Below are positions 5,181-51,058 of a stretch of 64,000 nucleotides of DNA, piece after piece. A program made the translations under genes and the position numbers. Source of the stretch: a virus; the IMG/VR virus record IMGVR_UViG_3300034520_000378. One strand, 5' to 3'. Position 1 is the stretch's first letter; every line of letters begins with the position of its first letter. Under the pieces are notes generated by a model, which saw only the letters and a program-made list of their open reading frames with translations, did no database searches and had not been told where the DNA came from.

Positions 5181-6707
5181 TTAGACGTTAAACACCATGG
5201 TGGCCGACATATCCTCTACAGCGTATTTTGCTTTGAAGGTCACATCAATCAGGCAGCCAAACGAAAAGGCGTCATACTGATACTCCGTCATGTCAAGCGA
5301 GTACGACTTTATCACACCTTCTCGCTGTATTGCCTTCATGGTTTCGTCAGCCGCCCGCTTCACCATCTCTCTAATAGGTATAATACCGCCAGTGGTGCCT
5401 ACAAAACTGTCCAGTACATTGCGGAGTCTGGAAATTATATAGTGTCCAGTCCGAACATTGGCTATATAGCGCAGCGGTCTTTCGTACGGCGCTGCAGTCA
5501 CGCCGTTGTACACGGAAAGCCCATTCTTCACCGAGTTGTAGAACACCACCAGCCCGGCTGCGGAAGCCCACCGCAGCGCCTCATCATCAAGCTCCACCCT
5601 CTGTTCGGTTATACTCACAAGCGGCTTGTTTGTGGTGGTCTCAGTACCATAAGCAGCAAGCAGTGCGGCATACGCTGGAGCACCGGATATATACATCCCA
5701 TCAAATGCAAGGTCGCCAAACACTATCGAGATGTAGTGCCCAAAATCCGTACCGTCCCGTACAAACCCGAGACGATTGTTAAGGCACGAGAACTTGATAA
5801 AGGATGCTATGTGCTCCGCGTTAAGCACCGGTACACTGTCGGGTATCGGCCGCACGCCAAGAACGCCAACAGTTGACACACCTACCGCCGCCTGCCTCCT
5901 GCAGAAGTCTATCAGCTGGCCGTGGAACGTGGGCGGCTCGCCATTGCTAAGAGGATATGTATCGAGAAAATCGGGATCGTCAGAGTACCACATGGTATAG
6001 CTCTGATCCGTGTCCCCCTCTTCAAGAAAGAGGGTGTACGACACGTCATTAAAGCGTGCATCAAGCAAAACCACTATGTCTGTCCTTCTGCCCTCAAGCA
6101 CGCTATAAGCATCCTCGAGCATTTGATAGAGCTCGTCCTTTGACGGAGCAAGCTCGTCGTTGCCGCCGTCGAGGTATACCACACTAGTGCCAAGCTCCGC
6201 TTTTAAGGCCTCCAGTGCAGCGATAAGCGCATCAGACGCAAAGTCCGGGTCAGTTGCACTGACCGATACCGGCACGCTGTCATTGTTTATCGCCTCGACA
6301 AGCATGCCAAGTGCCGGGTAGTTACTCAATGCGTAGCTGCCCACAAGCTGGTCACCCTGGTCATCGGACAGAAAGAACAAGAGCTGGCCTGCGTCTGCGG
6401 CAACCGCTATCCGGTTGCCCACCTCTCCGGCTTCCCTGCTCTTTATCTCGAAAAAGCACTGCCTGCCGTCAGTATCGGTCAGGACTAAAAGGCGCCGGGC
6501 ATGCTTGCCGTTTATACGCATCAAACAGTAGGTAGCATTGGGATTGACAGCATAAGCCATGCGGTATGCGTTATAAAGCGTGCCGCCGTATCCAAACACC
6601 GCCGCGGCATGTGCGGGGCTGGTAACCTCAATCGGCTCGAGAACGGGCCCGCCAGCTGCTGTGCCAAGCATCACGATTACTGACCCTATCGGTGCACTGT
6701 CAACCAT
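5181..6707 (-). CDS. Second tail sheath-like protein (paralogue)
   Basis: 508 aa; LGTAAGGP, LMRING, LDGGNDEL..SK..LY and YSVLEG match the corresponding segments of 2690-4531. Confidence 0.7.
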   Translation of the reverse strand: MVDSAPIGSVIVMLGTAAGGPVLEPIEVTSPAHAAAVFGYGGTLYNAYRMAYAVNPNATYCLMRINGKHARRLLVLTDTDGRQCFFEIKSREAGEVGNRIAVAADAGQLLFFLSDDQGDQLVGSYALSNYPALGMLVEAINNDSVPVSVSATDPDFASDALIAALEALKAELGTSVVYLDGGNDELAPSKDELYQMLEDAYSVLEGRRTDIVVLLDARFNDVSYTLFLEEGDTDQSYTMWYSDDPDFLDTYPLSNGEPPTFHGQLIDFCRRQAAVGVSTVGVLGVRPIPDSVPVLNAEHIASFIKFSCLNNRLGFVRDGTDFGHYISIVFGDLAFDGMYISGAPAYAALLAAYGTETTTNKPLVSITEQRVELDDEALRWASAAGLVVFYNSVKNGLSVYNGVTAAPYERPLRYIANVRTGHYIISRLRNVLDSFVGTTGGIIPIREMVKRAADETMKAIQREGVIKSYSLDMTEYQYDAFSFGCLIDVTFKAKYAVEDMSATMVFNV

Positions 6708-44008: not shown

Positions 44009-45571
44009 TTAACCTGCGCCCGGGGTTCTGCTTTTATCGAAAGAAAACCGTCTCGGGCCCGGTAGTTGAGGCGTTACCTCTTTTACTTCTATCGCAGGTT
44101 GTGCGCCTCTACCGCTAAAAATCCTCTCGATAAAGCTAGAAACTTTAACTACCGCGTTAACTGCAGCGTTTAAAATAGCCTTGCCAAGTGTATTCTCCTT
44201 CATATCTAACCCAAGCTTATAGGCTTCTGCCTTAAGCTTTTCGGCACATTCGTTCGCCCTTTTCATAGCTGCTATCAGCGGCGGATAATTGAATGGGTTT
44301 TTACTCAACCACATGCAATACTCCATTCCAGGCTTGTAAAACCCGTTTTCCCATCCTTCCCTTCTGTAATACTTCTCCATTACCTGTTTGGCCCGTTCAA
44401 TCTCGCTCAGTAAGTTCTTACGCATCTCCTCTGCACGCCTGCGTATTTCCTCGTATAAAAGTCTCCGCCTGGTCGGCCATAACCAGTTCCAGAAACTGAT
44501 CTTCAACTTCCGCCTTGCCCGTTCTGCCTTTCTGTCAATCGCTTTTATCCTCTCATTAATGGCATCCGGCACAACGCTTACTACCTTGAACACTGCTTCA
44601 TTGAACTCTCTTTTTGCCTCTTCAAATGCTGCCATACGCATACGTCTTGCCAACCCTCTCCCCGCCTTGGCACCAAAGAAAGCTCCTAAAACAGCTCCTA
44701 CAGCCGCACCAAATGGACCAAGAACTGCCCCTCCCAAGGCTACACCAATCTTACTTCCTATATATCCGCCTCCTCCAACGGCTATTGTGTCACGCATCAC
44801 ATTGACAGCTGCCTCGCCTACGCTAATGCGCCCGTTTAACAACAGATTGCCTTCCCGGATAGCTGCTAAAGCAAGGGTTACCAGAGGGATGTGAATACCG
44901 CCATCACCGAGTCTGTCTACCCCATGAATAGTATCCTTTACATGCCTTGCTACTTCATCATGGTGCAGATCGTGATCCACTATGACATTATCATTGCCAT
45001 CAAAATAGTGTGCCATTTCCGCATTTACAATTACAGGTATGTCATGAAACTTGTCCAAATGTTCCCGAATAAGATCAGGATCCATAACACATTTTACCTG
45101 GACCGGATGTCCGTCAACCAATATATCCCATCCTTCTTGATTGGGAATATCAGCAAACTCTACTATATGCCCCTGAGCAGCAAGATGGGCCGCTACAATC
45201 CTTTCCGCCGTATATCCCTCTAATCGTTCCATGGCGCCAGCAATAGACGCCTCTGCCCCTGATAGAAAATGGTCATGCACGTATCTGCTTATTTCGTTAA
45301 AAGTATCCAAATCAAGCTTGCTGGAAAAGTCCATTGCCTCCAGCACACTATCATCTATCATAGCCAGAGCGTGAAACATGTCATAGGCCGTAACCACTCC
45401 GGCAGCAACAGCATCAACATCGCCAACCTGCTTGATAAGAGAGTTAAAGCTCTTGCTTACCTCATCCCCCACTTTAATCTCTGTTCTCAACTCCCTATCA
45501 AGCACCCGCCAGCGCCATCGCCTTATTACTGCAAACACTACAATAGACCCTGCAAGTAGCAAAAGAACCAC
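44009..45571 (-). CDS. Membrane protein with glycine zipper and possible PD-(D/E)xK-like motif
   Basis: 520 aa; N-terminal TM, GxxxG repeats, NQEGWD.LVDG..VQVK, coiled coil. Confidence 0.55.
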   Translation of the reverse strand: MVLLLLAGSIVVFAVIRRWRWRVLDRELRTEIKVGDEVSKSFNSLIKQVGDVDAVAAGVVTAYDMFHALAMIDDSVLEAMDFSSKLDLDTFNEISRYVHDHFLSGAEASIAGAMERLEGYTAERIVAAHLAAQGHIVEFADIPNQEGWDILVDGHPVQVKCVMDPDLIREHLDKFHDIPVIVNAEMAHYFDGNDNVIVDHDLHHDEVARHVKDTIHGVDRLGDGGIHIPLVTLALAAIREGNLLLNGRISVGEAAVNVMRDTIAVGGGGYIGSKIGVALGGAVLGPFGAAVGAVLGAFFGAKAGRGLARRMRMAAFEEAKREFNEAVFKVVSVVPDAINERIKAIDRKAERARRKLKISFWNWLWPTRRRLLYEEIRRRAEEMRKNLLSEIERAKQVMEKYYRREGWENGFYKPGMEYCMWLSKNPFNYPPLIAAMKRANECAEKLKAEAYKLGLDMKENTLGKAILNAAVNAVVKVSSFIERIFSGRGAQPAIEVKEVTPQLPGPRRFSFDKSRTPGAG

Positions 45572-45637: not shown

Positions 45638-46067
45638 CCTGTTCAGAACAGAATTCGGAATGAACACAAGACAGCGTAAAAGTGAACTTGTATGAGCGAA
45701 ATCATGAAGAACCGGAAAGCTAGAGGTGGCAGGACTTAAAGTGCGTATAAACCCTGCAGAACATGGAAGTCACGCCTAAAGGATAATTTGTGCGGGAGAA
45801 ATCCCGAAGGGCAGGATGCTGAAGACAGCAGCGCGCTAAAGGGGATTTTGCACGGACGAAATCCTGAGGGGGCCACCTCTCTCATCACATCGTTTCTCGC
45901 CCGTTTTGGCCCCCTCCCCCTTTGTTACCCCTCCCTCCCTGCTTCCACCTTCCTCCTCCTCGCACCACCGCTCCGCTCCCTCTAGTTGTGTGGGTGCAAT
46001 AAATCATCCCCCGTTGACAGTCCGTTGAGCCGTGCGGCGGGCCGAGGGGGCAGAGGAGGTGGTTAGC

Positions 46068-46572
46068 ATGGCAGTCAGGTTTTCAGCTGTTGTTAGTGAG
46101 TTGAGGGAGGCAGGGTACATACCCGAGGGCATCGAGGTGTTTGTGGGGTCTCCGTGGGGCCCATCGGCGGTGCTGCCCCTGGAGTGCACCCGGGAGGAAA
46201 GAGAGTTTATGGAGCTCCAGGTGGGGATTCACCTGCCGGATGAGCTGGACCCCGAGGGCTGGGGGGGAAGACGCGCAGTTGGAGCTGCAGCTCCTCCGCG
46301 ACAAGCTTACCCAAGCCGGTCTACCCGATGACGACCTAGCGTTAGCCAGGTTCTTCGTGCTCCACGAGGTTGGCCACTGGGTCCACTTCATACAGGAAGG
46401 CGAGCTTCCCTTTGCAGAGGACCTTATCCTCCGCCTTGGGCTCCTCGTCGATGCAGAGGAGCAGGGCTGGAGCGATGAAGAGGCGGCCCGTCAGTATAGG
46501 CAGCTGCCAGTGGAGGTGCGGGCAGGCGCCTATACCTTGGAACAACTGAAACAGCTGTACGGGCGGAGCTGA
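46068..46572 (+). pseudogene. Zn metallopeptidase-like gene (HExxH) frameshifted in a G7 tract
   Basis: The RBS/ATG frame joins the HEVGH..E..A frame if G7 at 46261-46267 is G6. Confidence 0.7.
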
Positions 46573-46676
46573 AACAAGGCTCCGCCTTTTCTTGTTTTGC
46601 TGGTGAAATAAAACAACCCCGATGAAAGCTCACTCTAGCATGCGGTGAGCTGAGGGGATGTAAGGAGGTGATTAGC

Positions 46677-47045
46677 ATGCTGAAGATGATTCCTGATGTC
46701 GATACAAAAGCGCTGGAGGCGGTTATTGTCCGTCTCGCAGCTAGGATCAAACAGAAAGGAGATTGGCCGGTAGAGCCGACTATTGCCGAGTGGAAAGGCT
46801 TCCGGCTCTGGGCGGGAGTCACGCCGAGGCAGGGGTTCCGGCGGGTCGTTATTACCCCGTCCGGCAAGGCGTCCTGGGCGGTCACGTTAATCGACGCCAA
46901 CCCCGCCAAAGTAAGGCAAGCCGAACACAAGGTCATGGTGTACCTCACCATTGGCCTGAGGCAGGTCGTCGGCCAGGTCGACTTCAGCGGCCGGCGCCCC
47001 CTGCTCAGATGGTTCGGAGATCGAAAGGAGGTGAAAGCATGCTGA
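46677..47045 (+). CDS. Hypothetical protein
   Basis: AAGGAGGTG RBS before ATG 46677. Confidence 0.7.
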   Translation: MLKMIPDVDTKALEAVIVRLAARIKQKGDWPVEPTIAEWKGFRLWAGVTPRQGFRRVVITPSGKASWAVTLIDANPAKVRQAEHKVMVYLTIGLRQVVGQVDFSGRRPLLRWFGDRKEVKAC

Positions 47046-47197
47046 AGAAGTACACGATCAGAAAGGGCAGCCTGGCCTGGTGGATCTCCAAGCTGCTGCC
47101 CTGGCTCGGATTGGCGCTCTTCCTCGTGGTCCTGGGGCTTATCGGCCACGAGGAGCTGAGCATTTATTGTCAGCGGCATTACCTGCCACTGCCGTAA
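47039..47197 (+). CDS. Small membrane protein (52 aa)
   Basis: AAGGAGGTG RBS; MLKKYTIRKGSLAWWISKLLPWLGLALFLVVLGLIG. Confidence 0.65.
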   Translation: MLKKYTIRKGSLAWWISKLLPWLGLALFLVVLGLIGHEELSIYCQRHYLPLP

Positions 47198-47355
47198 GGG
47201 AGGGGACGCACTGTCTCCTCCCTTTTCTTGTTTGTCACACAGAAGAGCTGAATGGGACCGGCCGCTGCTCCGCATCCCCCTAGCTCTCCGGGTGAATAAA
47301 CTGCCCCGTCCCGCTTCCCCATGCGGCGGCACGGGGAATGAAGGAGGTGACAAGC

Positions 47356-47847
47356 ATGGGTTGCTTTGAAGCGCGCATGTGGCTTCAGCAGTTCTGGGAC
47401 CGGCATGGCCGGCTCCCACAGACTCAAGAGGTACCCATCGAGCACAGCCGGTACCTCCGCGGTTTCAAGGTCGTCCCGGTCGGCTGGGAGTTCGAGCTCC
47501 GGCTTGCCAGTGCCCTTGCCGACCTAGGGCTGTATGTCTACCCCTACAGCCCCGAACAGGACAGACAGGGGGTAGATATCTCGTTCGAGCTGGGCGACTA
47601 CATCGTCGACCTCCAGCTCAAAGCATGCAGGCCGTACCTCAATGTCGAGCTCCTTGGCTGGCACTGGCGCTCCCCATATGTGTTGGTCGAGGCACCCTAC
47701 CGCGGTGGCGAGCTCCTCACCGCAGAGGTGGAAGCAATCGTAGGCCGCCTACTACGACTGCTCGACCTCGACTACACAGTCGTGCCAGCCTGGGCTCCCA
47801 AAACCGTCCTCTGCCGCTCGTGCCGTTCCTACCGCCGTTCTCGTTAG
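47356..47847 (+). CDS. Putative PD-(D/E)xK-fold nuclease
   Basis: E..L...L..LG..DRQGVD.SF......DLQLK motif. Confidence 0.5.
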   Translation: MGCFEARMWLQQFWDRHGRLPQTQEVPIEHSRYLRGFKVVPVGWEFELRLASALADLGLYVYPYSPEQDRQGVDISFELGDYIVDLQLKACRPYLNVELLGWHWRSPYVLVEAPYRGGELLTAEVEAIVGRLLRLLDLDYTVVPAWAPKTVLCRSCRSYRRSR

Positions 47848-47849
47848 TT

Positions 47850-47878
47850 ATTGTACCACAGGGGAGACAGGAAGTCAA
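47850..47878 (-). promoter_or_regulatory. Antisense sigmaA-like promoter embedded in a terminator arm
   Basis: TTGACT-N17-TACAAT with TG extension on the minus strand. Confidence 0.65.
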
Positions 47879-48154
47879 GCCCCCCTCCTGTCTCCCCTGT
47901 TCTTTTTGCCTCCACTGCTCCGCACTGATTTGTTGTTTGGGTGAATTTAGTCTCCGAGCCGCGCCGGTTGGTTGGATGAGCTGGCACCGGGAATACATAA
48001 GCCGGGCCGTAAGTCATGACGTCGCCAGCCGGTCACCTCCTCTTGCGCCGGGAGAGGAGGGAGCGACTCCCTGTAACCCCTTTTGCCAGAAGGGACGCAG
48101 GGAGGGTAATAGCCACGACGGAGAATCAAACAGGCATGAAAGGAGGAGATAACG

Positions 48155-48490
48155 ATGCTGAAGAAAGTGTGGGGCCTGCTCAAGCAAGGTGCCCTCGCCG
48201 TGGCTAAGGCAGTCATGAAAGTTGCTGCTTTCCTGTACAGCCTTGCAACCGCCTTGAAAGCCCGGCTGGCTACCGTCCACCCGCTGCTGCCGGTAGCCAC
48301 AGCACCCGGTGTGGCTTACGCAGCCTATAAGGGCGCCCAGCTGTTTATGGCCTTCTGGGCTATCCTGCTTGCGCTGCCGTTCGGCCTCCTGGGTGCCCAG
48401 GGGCTCGTGAACGCTGTGGTCTTTGTGACCATGCTGCTTGTTCCGTTCACAGTAGCCGGCCTCTTCTTCACCCTGGTGGAGCAGAAGTGA
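48155..48490 (+). CDS. Hydrophobic membrane protein
   Basis: 111 aa, AAGGAGG RBS. Confidence 0.65.
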   Translation: MLKKVWGLLKQGALAVAKAVMKVAAFLYSLATALKARLATVHPLLPVATAPGVAYAAYKGAQLFMAFWAILLALPFGLLGAQGLVNAVVFVTMLLVPFTVAGLFFTLVEQK

Positions 48491-48506
48491 TCCACTAGGG
48501 TGAAGG

Positions 48507-48691
48507 TGGAACGAACCATACTATGGCTAGATATAGCAGTATGGTATGGTACATCCACATACGTGGAACGAACCAATACTATACTGCTATATCTAGATCC
48601 CTGTTCTGTTAGAAGGGTATATAGAGTACCGTAAGCTAAGAAGCTCATATGAGCTATATAGCTTACGGTATGTTTAGTATGGTTCGTTCCA
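48507..48691. repeat. Nested inverted-repeat (four-way junction) element
   Basis: 17-bp perfect outer IR enclosing 16-bp and 12-bp perfect IR hairpins and a small hairpin. Confidence 0.85.
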
Positions 48692-48809
48692 GGCCAGCTT
48701 TATTCTATACCCTCGCTCCGCTCGGTTTAGCTGTTTAGGTGACTCTGCCGGACCCGGTGAGGCCGTGTGCGGCCGGTGGAGGCGTCCGGCACAGAAAGGA
48801 GGTGTTAGT

Positions 48810-49346
48810 GTGAATCGGATTGCTATTATTGGCACCCGGCATCCCGCGCCGGAGGCAGCGGAGCTTATCGTCCGGATCGCCCGCGCCTTCCGTGACCTGG
48901 GCTGGACCTTGGTCACAGGCAATGCGGACGGCGTGGACAGCCTGGCGCGGGATGCGTGGAACGAGACAGCGCCGGAGCGCGTGCTGCTGTTCCTGCCGTG
49001 GCGCGGGTACAATGCAGCATACATCCACCCCCGGAACCGCGTGATCGTGTTTGACCCGCAGGTGCACCGGGTGTGGCACGACTCAGTGGCTGTTTACCAT
49101 CCCGCTGCTGAGCGCCTCTCCCCTGGCGCGGTCAAGCTCCACGCCCGCAACTATGGGATCGTGGAGGCGGCCGACGTTGTCATCGCCCTGCCCAACGACA
49201 GTATCGAGGGCGGTGGGACTGGCCAGGGGATCCGGGTGGCTCGGGCGATGGGCAAACCGCTGTTTGTCCTGCCCGGCGACCTGGAGGCGCTCAGACAGTT
49301 TTACCGCCGGGCTCGGGGACTAGCTTTCGTGCCGCACCGGGGCTAG
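48810..49346 (+). CDS. SLOG-superfamily (DprA/Smf-like) protein
   Basis: IAIIGTR, VTGNADGVD, LPW.GYN, HARN, GGTGQ..R.A. Confidence 0.8.
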   Translation: MNRIAIIGTRHPAPEAAELIVRIARAFRDLGWTLVTGNADGVDSLARDAWNETAPERVLLFLPWRGYNAAYIHPRNRVIVFDPQVHRVWHDSVAVYHPAAERLSPGAVKLHARNYGIVEAADVVIALPNDSIEGGGTGQGIRVARAMGKPLFVLPGDLEALRQFYRRARGLAFVPHRG

Positions 49347-49444
49347 TCTCCTCTCGTAAAGCCCAGTGCCCCCACGGGTGTCTCTACTGCTATTGGAAGG
49401 CGTAGAGGCCCCGTCGGGGCTTTTTTGTTGTACTCCCCTCTCCC

Positions 49445-49693
49445 TTATACCCTCTCCTCTTTCTCCTCCCCTCCTTTCTCCCTGCAGCAGTGATGATCCG
49501 CCCGCCGCAGTCGCCGCGCCCGCCTCAGCTCCTCATACATCTCCTCCCTACCCCTCTCATATCCCTGTTCGTACACATACCTCACCAGAGCTTCTACCGT
49601 CAGCGCCTCAAGCCGTCCATCACGCAGCATGTTGTATACCGTAGCCCTGCTCACGCCGAGCAGCTTTGCAGCCATCGTCGCACTTACCTCCAT
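49445..49693 (-). CDS. Small helix-turn-helix protein (excisionase/HTH_17-like)
   Basis: SATMAAKLLGVSRATVYNMLRDGRL; AAGGGG RBS before ATG 49693. Confidence 0.8.
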   Translation of the reverse strand: MEVSATMAAKLLGVSRATVYNMLRDGRLEALTVEALVRYVYEQGYERGREEMYEELRRARRLRRADHHCCREKGGEEKEERV

Positions 49694-49707
49694 CGTGATA
49701 CCCCTTC

Positions 49708-49894
49708 TGTCTAAAAGTGTCACATTAGTCCACTGGATTAACATCACTTCTTTAGACACCTCTATTCCGTATATTACCCCCGATCTCAAAATGCCGCATC
49801 CCATCGCCGTTTTCGCTCCCGCTCTATACCGCATACCTCTCTCTGTCTAAAAGTGTCGCCTTAATCCACTGGATTAACACCGCTTCTTTAGACA
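49708..49894. repeat. Two 51-bp palindromic direct repeats
   Basis: 49708-49758 and 49844-49894, 46/51 identical; TGTCTAAA..TTA(G/A)TCCA-C-TGGATTAA..TTTAGACA. Confidence 0.9.
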
Positions 49895-50182
49895 CACAGC
49901 TCCCCTCCGCTGGCTGTAGTGTGATTTAACCAGCCTCCGGCTTACTTTAGTCCCCTTGAGTGAAGCTGCGGAGCCGGTAAACTACTCCTCCCCGGGTGGG
50001 GTGCTATGGTGGTTGCAAAAACGCCCGCGGGACGGTAGGTCGCGACACGGGCGGCACGACCCCTCTTCGCTTCCCGTTGCCGCCAGCGCTCCGCGCTCCG
50101 TAGTCTGAACAGCAAAATTACGCAGCGGCAATCGGGATATATACCCGCACACCGGTTGTCGTTGCTGTAGGAGGTGAGAGAT

Positions 50183-51058
50183 ATGTGCGGGAGAGCTCCA
50201 AGAGATAACCATCTGATGGGGGTTGAGCCCCCGGTGACGGCGATGGTGGTGGTCGCCGCAGACTTGCGGCTGCCGGGTGCACCGGTGCGTACTTGGCAGT
50301 TGGCGAAGGGAGGTGAGTTGGTAATTGGCGTGGCACTGGTGGAATTCAGGAATAGGACAACCGTTGGGTATATCACCACGGTTGATCATATAGGGGAAAT
50401 TCGATGGCGAATCGAGGCCGGCCCGATGGGGGTATATGCCACCCAGAGTGTTATGCCCGGCCAAGAGTGGAGTCACTTCCTGGACCCGCTTGGGAGAGAT
50501 GTTAGTCCGTATGTGCACGCTGCCGTGGCCCGGGCGGCGGCGGAGCTGCTGCGGCTGGATCCGGGTAAGCCCCTTGGGGACAGTAGGTTTAGTGGCGTAA
50601 GTCAGTGCGTGGCGTGTCATGCGTTTAGGATCTTGCCGCAGGGCGATCAGGTTTTAGGAGACGCCGAGGGATGGGTGCGCACGCCCAGTACTGGTGATCT
50701 CCGCGACAGGGGGTTATGGCAGGCTGAAAGGTACTATTGCGTTGTCCGCCATGAGACGCCCGAGGATATAGAGCGTCTTGTGGCGAAGGCCAATGCGGAA
50801 TACACGAGGGGATGGAGCGCCCCCATCCTTCCCCTCCATTATGCGGGAGAGGAGTGTCCGTACTTCCTCCCGAAGGGAGCCGGGCGCCGCGGTGGTTTCC
50901 CGGCTTGGGAAGTCCCCGGTGGCCAGATCTCGAGCGATAATGTCGACATCGTTGACCGGGATGGCGTCAGGACTCTGCGTGTGCGAGCAGGGTTCTGGCA
51001 GGTTGAGGTGCCAGTGAAAAAGAATACCCCGTGCGCACACACGGGGCAAAAACAGTAA
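50183..51058 (+). CDS. Hypothetical protein with scattered Cys motifs
   Basis: AGGAGGTG RBS; CVAC..C..CPYF. Confidence 0.6.
   Translation: MCGRAPRDNHLMGVEPPVTAMVVVAADLRLPGAPVRTWQLAKGGELVIGVALVEFRNRTTVGYITTVDHIGEIRWRIEAGPMGVYATQSVMPGQEWSHFLDPLGRDVSPYVHAAVARAAAELLRLDPGKPLGDSRFSGVSQCVACHAFRILPQGDQVLGDAEGWVRTPSTGDLRDRGLWQAERYYCVVRHETPEDIERLVAKANAEYTRGWSAPILPLHYAGEECPYFLPKGAGRRGGFPAWEVPGGQISSDNVDIVDRDGVRTLRVRAGFWQVEVPVKKNTPCAHTGQKQ

Follow-up and report, generated by a model that had tools for sequence, protein, structure and literature searches.

A recurrent phage mRNA leader with a predicted pseudoknot over the start codon, probably a new brake on translation

We analyzed a window of 64,000 nucleotides (nt) of viral DNA, corresponding to bases 64238-128237 of the 172,670-base IMG/VR virus record IMGVR_UViG_3300034520_000378, in which the minus-strand structural genes stop at 44009-45571 (with weak tape-measure-like matches) and small plus-strand genes begin at about 46000. 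Judging from their position, these small genes would be early genes. Three consecutive transcription units among them open with a leader in which the loop of a hairpin is complementary to the start of the gene that follows, and we propose that this leader is probably a new brake on translation. The parts of the three leaders, including their Shine-Dalgarno (SD) sequences, and the genes that they head are as follows.

Leader of unit 1: 46008-46072, plus strand; C-stem 46008-12/46046-50; bulge 46013-15; GA 46016-17 facing GA 46044-45; inner stem 46020-26/46036-42; loop 46027-35; SD 46054-61; ATG 46068-70; pseudoknot strands 46029-35 with 46066-72; covariance-model score 75.5 bits.
Leader of unit 2: 46617-46682, plus strand; C-stem 46617-20/46654-57; bulge 46621-23; GA 46624-25 facing GA 46652-53; loop 46635-43; SD 46663-70; ATG 46677-79; pseudoknot strands 46636-43 with 46675-82; covariance-model score 73.6 bits.
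Leader of unit 3: 47304-47360, plus strand; continuous hairpin 47304-36 with one C.C mismatch and without a kink turn; loop 47316-24; SD 47342-49; ATG 47356-58; pseudoknot strands 47318-24 with 47354-60; covariance-model score 50.4 bits.
Gene 1: 46068-46572, plus strand; ORFan, frameshifted in the window at the G-run at about 46257-64, intact (168 aa) in the relative L019.
Gene 2: from 46677, plus strand; ORFan of 122 aa.
Gene 2b: 47041-47197, plus strand; small membrane-like protein of 52 aa, overlapping gene 2.
Gene 3: 47356-47847, plus strand; ORFan of 163 aa with the homologues P0002 (61% identity) and P0131.

The genes downstream of the leaders had no Pfam or PHROG match and are ORFans unrelated to one another. 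In gene 1, the G-run at 46257-46264 splits the frame into open reading frames at 46032-46331 and 46141-46572, and contigs of three runs are one base shorter at position 46261; the break may be an error of sequencing, a genuine frameshift or the result of a slippery homopolymer.

In each of the three leaders, 7-8 loop bases are complementary to positions -2 to +5 or +6 of the leader's own gene, while the SD sequence, which is strong, is located on the connecting strand, where the model leaves it unpaired, and ends 4 nt before the paired -2 position. A preliminary description of this DNA, made from the letters alone, had noted the fold that the three units have in common and the covariation between loop and start; the strings and coordinates that it gave for the leaders are present as given, and the common fold is borne out by nine further distinct copies in related phages. 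The reading of a conserved N-T-G-A motif in the leader as a mini-open reading frame was also considered and rejected: its start is TTG or GTG in some copies, its stop falls after 4-21 codons or is missing, and it has no SD sequence.

Relatives were found by exact-protein look-ups in metagenome contigs. Besides the near relatives L016-L020, these comprised L015, reached through a homologue of gene 3 (61% identity), L056 and L059, reached through homologues of the DprA-like gene of this region (65-67%), and the 140-kb contig L060, reached through a remote gene-3 homologue. In all, 12 distinct copies of the leader were recovered from six phage records (the window, L015, L019, L056, L059 and L060), where they stand before unrelated genes; the nine copies beyond the window all lie on metagenome contigs of related phages. 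Contig ends of 30 letters from four runs carried further leader variants, whose starts were unreadable and which were excluded from this count. The further genes headed by a leader begin at the following positions.

L015: 56 and 908.
L019: 333, 939, 1246 and 1934.
L056: 1832.
L059: 1877.
L060: 7219 and 7804.

A covariance model (R1), the approach put forward in the preliminary description, was trained on 11 copies. Across the whole 172,670-base record, it matched exactly the three window copies, and it recovered one copy outside its training set, at L060:6460-6532 (51 bits), the loop of which matches its own start; the true ATG of that gene lies at 6520 and had been mis-called by the gene finder. 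In L015, another leader precedes the gene-3 homologue, and a copy of the present one precedes the homologue of the 47041 gene (gene 2b); the leader therefore moves independently of the genes. A separate observation concerns L056:763-820 and L059:761-821, where a promoter-proximal hairpin leader precedes a conserved 47-aa gene; this hairpin scores weakly with the model (18-20 bits) and has no loop-to-start complementarity.

Wider searches gave little beyond this set. Blastn against GenBank phages returned no match, protein-guided scans of IMG/VR (with genes 2 and 3, the 50183 gene, and alignments A2 and A6) found nothing, and the same was true of a scan of JGI metagenomes and GTDB genomes with alignment A2 and of a homologue search with the 52-aa protein of gene 2b. 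Two DNA pattern scans of viral, metagenome and genome contigs gave chance matches only, none of them with the hairpin. A DprA-like gene with 66% identity was present in a Moorella thermoacetica record and in a phage-sized NCBI record of 176.6 kb, with no leader nearby. DNA of this kind is present in subsurface, soil, compost and oil-field metagenomes. The leader family is narrow: it comes from a single lineage of large phages sampled in compost, soil and the subsurface, and the host lineage is probably thermophilic Bacillota.

To compare the copies, we set the register of the loop-to-start helix by placing the loop CAU opposite AUG. Every copy then has pairs from -2 to +5, and in about half of the copies the helix reaches +7. 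In a MAFFT alignment (A4), 90.9% of the cells of the pseudoknot helix were paired and the core of seven pairs was present in 11 of 11 copies, whereas slid registers gave 24-42%. The second alignment (A5), which holds all 12 distinct copies and was fitted by the covariance model to the nested stems only, gave 91.7% paired cells and the core seven pairs in 12 of 12; with the 12 copies, sliding the register left 25-44% of cells paired. The covariation score was 0.402 in A4 (0.184 when shuffled) and 0.404 in A5 (0.185 when shuffled), values reached by none of 500 shuffles in either case, although related sequences can beat shuffles without any structure. Within A5, the pair at -1 was G-C in seven copies, C-G in four and G.U in one; that at +4 was C-G in nine, A-U in two and G-C in one; and that at +5 was G-C in nine and A-U, C-G and G.U in one each, such that three core pairs change on both sides. 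Taken with +7, these are the flanking positions that vary on both strands, and the seven-pair core remains unbroken throughout. Loops ending in CAUGC precede starts with GC before them, and loops ending in CAUCC precede starts with GG before them; both types occur within single genomes (L015, L019 and L060). The hairpin itself changes in the same manner, with both-sided changes at six of the eight inner-stem pairs and, in the outer stem, a swap of the outermost pair from C-G to G-C in L056 and L059. Since G.U pairs are tolerated and the variable positions are not conserved, the element is better understood as an RNA than as a DNA site. The AUG is occluded in the model, and the loop-to-start duplexes are evenly strong, at -11.6 to -14.1 kcal/mol at 37 C and -7.1 to -9.6 kcal/mol at 60 C.

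Complementarity alone is weak evidence, as 21% of the 115 SD-preceded starts in the record have a helix at least as good as that of the weakest of four leaders (the three above and a fourth, described below) in the interval from -85 to -17. When only helices that involved a hairpin loop and spanned the start codon were counted, a score of at least 7 was reached at 7.2% of 209 starts, compared to 1.3% when starts were swapped between genes, and the top scores came mostly from members of the leader family or from the leader of the 50183 gene. Loops formed a mean of 8.25 contiguous pairs with their own starts vs. 5.53 with the starts of other copies, and none of 100,000 whole-row permutations matched the observed pairing total. 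Together, these results confirm what the preliminary description had claimed from three copies, namely that the loop pairs with its own start and follows it in sequence.

Between the outer and inner stems, we also found a feature that had not been described before, the signature of a kink turn (k-turn). By sequence, a standard k-turn consists of a C helix, a three-nucleotide bulge, and G.A and A.G pairs (PMC5061560). In a sequence test, 10 of the 12 copies had a C-stem, a G-N-U bulge and GA, followed on the opposite side by GA directly 5' of the G-strand; the C helix is a CCCC/GGGG stem of 4-5 bp with C-G next to the bulge, again in 10 of 12. A common role of k-turns is to allow the docking of a terminal loop at a distant site, SAM-I being an example (PMC5061560), and a kink at this place in the leader would turn the loop back toward the strand leaving the C-stem, which bears the SD sequence and the AUG. 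On the evidence of the signature, the leader may adopt such a kinked three-dimensional shape. Positions 3b,3n are mixed across copies (C.C, C.U, A.U, G.U and C.G), and several copies would therefore need protein or tertiary contacts to kink, according to the folding rules (PMC5061560).

The leader forms part of a larger cassette of about 110 nt that is common to units 1-3, with a mean identity of 70%. Its order is GCTCCGC, then about 20 nt on GGTG with an AT-rich hexamer, then the hairpin, AGGAGGTG, 6 nt and ATG. The promoter-like boxes of the region are the following.

Unit 1: 45970-46003, plus strand; GCTCCGC 45970-76, GGTG 45993-96, AT-rich hexamer 45998-46003.
Units 2 and 3: 46579-46612 and 47267-47300, plus strand.
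Genes without the leader: 47917-43 and 48715-41.

The GCTCCGC heptamer thus occurs five times (45970-76, 46579-85, 47267-73, 47917-23 and 48715-21), with GGTG about 16-17 nt on at near-constant spacing. Only three of the five units with the box have the pseudoknot leader, and the leaders of the 48155 and 48810 genes, behind the same box, showed no loop-to-start pairing of note. Because the box also heads two units with other leaders, promoter box and leader are separable modules. A sigma-70 promoter was considered as well, but a scan found none on the plus strand here and GCTCCGC is unlike a -35 element; from its sequence, the GCTCCGC/GGTG box looks like a phage-specific promoter.

From these observations, we consider it reasonably likely that the family consists of cis-acting mRNA leaders of about 65 nt that hide the start codon in a pseudoknot, leave the SD sequence free and so throttle or gate initiation. 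The hairpin would lie near the presumed 5' end of the transcript and comprises a short C/G outer stem, a k-turn-like internal loop in most copies, and an inner stem that is usually closed by a U.G pair and capped by about 9 unpaired nt. Of the bases in this loop, seven to nine pair with positions -2 to +5 or +7, which would give an H-type pseudoknot, the connecting strand of which would present the exposed, very strong SD sequence. The 30S subunit could then dock on the SD sequence, while the AUG would be kept from the P site until the pseudoknot melts. A factor that stabilizes the fold, for example, a k-turn-binding protein, could turn this built-in brake into a shut-off, and the fold would offer a single handle for the coordinate control of unrelated small phage genes. 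A more specific form of this idea makes the k-turn the point of control: a protein binding there would kink the hairpin and thereby lock its loop onto the AUG, shutting off a set of unrelated early genes together after the ribosome has docked; this we put forward only tentatively, as possible but not likely. Candidates for the binder would be L7Ae-family proteins of the host, such as YbxF/YlxQ, and an unrecognized phage factor.

[quoted passage not shown] The phage leader likewise pairs a hairpin loop with the coding start and leaves the SD sequence unpaired. In contrast to rpsO, it has no sequence or Rfam relationship, a very strong SD sequence, a pairing that includes the AUG itself and, mostly, a k-turn-like loop, and it stands before a series of unrelated genes, each time with a loop that fits the start in question; autogenous control is unlikely for this last reason. 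By analogy, the leader would repress translation and a regulator may exist. SAM-I is similar in that its P2 helix has a standard k-turn signature and a terminal loop that pairs at long range (PMC5061560), but the receptor in the phage leader is its own start-codon region instead of an aptamer junction, there is no conserved ligand pocket, and the noncanonical (NC) helix has an extra base. The T4 gene 32 leader also has a small pseudoknot in a phage mRNA leader, although that knot lies upstream of the start codon and is conserved in sequence, whereas here one strand consists of the start codon and codons 2-3 and is specific to each gene; the two leaders have no similarity in sequence. The SAS/ESAS elements of Cluster K mycobacteriophages are repeats tied to the translation starts of a subset of genes, some with upstream inverted repeats; what is conserved in them, however, is the sequence itself (a 13-bp box and 17-bp inverted repeats), pairing with the start codon is not reported for them (PMC3203893), and they belong to another phage lineage and host phylum. 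None of 4,227 Rfam models matched, at E values up to 1 in the window region and up to 0.1 in four relatives, which agrees with the earlier supposition that no known riboswitch class is involved; the only rows returned were microRNA-model matches to a palindrome and a terminator, which are spurious. We would therefore describe the leader as a form of translational-operator pseudoknot, in which the k-turn signature and the loop tailored to each gene's start appear to be the new features.

Several observations weigh against this interpretation. The copies are few and partly related by duplication, and the approximately six independent double changes, while good support, fall below a formal R-scape-type test. 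The hairpins are recovered by minimum-free-energy folding, but their stability relative to shuffled sequence is unremarkable (z of +1.3 to -0.8); since single hairpins are no more stable than shuffled sequence, the support is comparative and not energetic. As for the k-turn, the unit 3 leader and copy L019n lack the signature yet keep the pairing, for which it is therefore not required; in both alignments (A4 and A5), the bulged strand carries an additional base next to the GA pairs, so that this is not a textbook simple k-turn; and no gene for an L7Ae-family protein (PF01248) was found in the phage record. The AT-rich box ends 1-6 nt before the C-strand across copies, the distance being just 1-3 nt in several of them, and this -10-like box is so near that the outer stem and k-turn might be incompletely transcribed; were transcription to start inside the hairpin, neither could form. 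That the outer stem contains a compensatory swap, albeit a single one, is a mild argument for its transcription. Finally, a pairing that hides the AUG could serve mRNA stability instead of translational control.

This last point leads to an alternative that we regard as unlikely, in which the leader is a stabilizer at the 5' end of the mRNA: a structured 5' end and a strong SD sequence would protect short messages from 5'-dependent decay in a Bacillota host, and the loop-to-start pairing would merely compact untranslated mRNA, with translation not being the regulated step. In Bacillus, mRNA is stabilized by 5' stem-loops and by 5'-proximal SD elements, and the leader has a matching layout, as its hairpin begins a few nucleotides after the promoter-like box, a perfect SD sequence lies near the 5' end and each unit is a short message bounded by terminators. 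However, a stabilizing hairpin need not track codons 2-3 of each gene, yet the loop does so and this is its strongest covarying feature, and two units with the same promoter box do without the leader.

Quite improbable, in our estimate, is a strict sensor, either a small-ligand riboswitch or an RNA thermometer that melts at the host's growth temperature. The combination of k-turn and pseudoknot recalls riboswitch aptamers such as SAM-I (PMC5061560), and a thermometer would fit with the weakening of the computed duplex energy from about -13 kcal/mol at 37 C to about -8 kcal/mol at 60 C, with relatives from compost, subsurface and oil-field samples and with M. thermoacetica as the source of the nearest named homologue of a neighboring gene. 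Against this, conservation among the unpaired bases is almost confined to the k-turn, the SD sequence and the pairing strands; the linker is free to vary, as is the loop in its 5' part, and because of the free linker there is no obvious ligand pocket. There is also no alternative terminator or antiterminator, the Rfam comparison gave no match, and a phage has no clear use for temperature sensing on these genes. Least probable of all is that the pairing has no function and stems from the descent of the copies from one ancestral cassette together with chance, or from a feature of the DNA, for example, an inverted repeat resembling an operator close to the promoter: five central pairs are common by descent, 7-nt helices are frequent upstream of starts and independent copies are few, but positions -1, +4, +5 and +7 change on both sides with the core never broken, noncognate combinations pair much worse, and a DNA operator would conserve sequence, whereas here stems and pairing strands vary while complementarity, G.U included, is kept.

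The preliminary description had added a fourth, differently shaped leader that it took to do the same.

Fourth leader: 50122-50191, plus strand; 14-bp stem 50122-65 with a 16-nt loop; 50144-51 complementary to 50184-91.

The downstream strand was placed correctly at 50184-91, but it corresponds to +2 to +9, as the ATG sits at 50183-50185; eight loop bases are thus complementary to these positions. Its score of 8.0 is reached by 0.16% of swapped starts, and the leader is identical in the near relative L017. It does not belong to the family, since its hairpin is unrelated and the distant homologues of the 50183 gene in L056, L058 and L060 are preceded by different sequence that shows no such pairing. 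The fourth leader may have arrived independently at the same arrangement, or its pairing may be due to chance. The core (45786-45804) of the tandem elements upstream of the small genes, described below, resembles the start of the 50183 gene at 50181-50199 (16/19), and the fourth-leader loop is thus complementary to both places.

The remaining features of the region are the following.

Terminators before units 2 and 3: 46561-87 and 47196-224.
Terminator hairpin after gene 3: about 47857-47902.
ORFan gene at 48155, with the same promoter box and another leader.
DprA-like gene: 48810-49346.
Helix-turn-helix gene (HTH_17): 49445-49714, minus strand.
291-aa gene: ATG 50183-50185, carrying the fourth leader.

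Several noncoding elements surround these genes. Between the blocks of late and early genes, 45736-45880 holds two tandem elements of about 40 nt (CTAAAGG...GAAATCC...), and similar elements are found at the equivalent position upstream of the early regions in the distant relatives L056, L059 and L060. Long tracts of C and T only (45880-45965 and 49425-49480) flank the small-gene block. The stretch 48504-48695 is AT-rich and gene-free and contains nested palindromes, with arms 48507-23/48675-91 that are 100% complementary, arms 48527-47/48576-96 that are 95% complementary and a palindrome with a perfect center at 48627-70; it may be an origin or a protein-binding site. Two 54-nt direct repeats that are 91% identical (49706-49759 and 49842-49895) lie directly upstream of the minus-strand HTH_17 gene, facing the 50183 gene, and look like the operator sites of a divergent control region.

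Since the family is narrow and comes from one phage lineage, its wider reach is limited until more members or a regulator are found. If our interpretation is true, the leader would represent a compact, modular way of hiding a start codon while the ribosome-binding site stays open, in which one scaffold is reused and the loop alone is rewritten for each gene. It would add a phage example to the very few entrapment-type operators known, would link k-turns to the control of translation initiation in bacteria, and could serve as a natural template for programmable translational gates, possibly at high temperature. Engineered L7Ae/k-turn translational switches exist, and if control by a k-turn-binding protein were to prove true, these phages would possess their natural counterpart, a portable cassette with the loop rewritten gene by gene.

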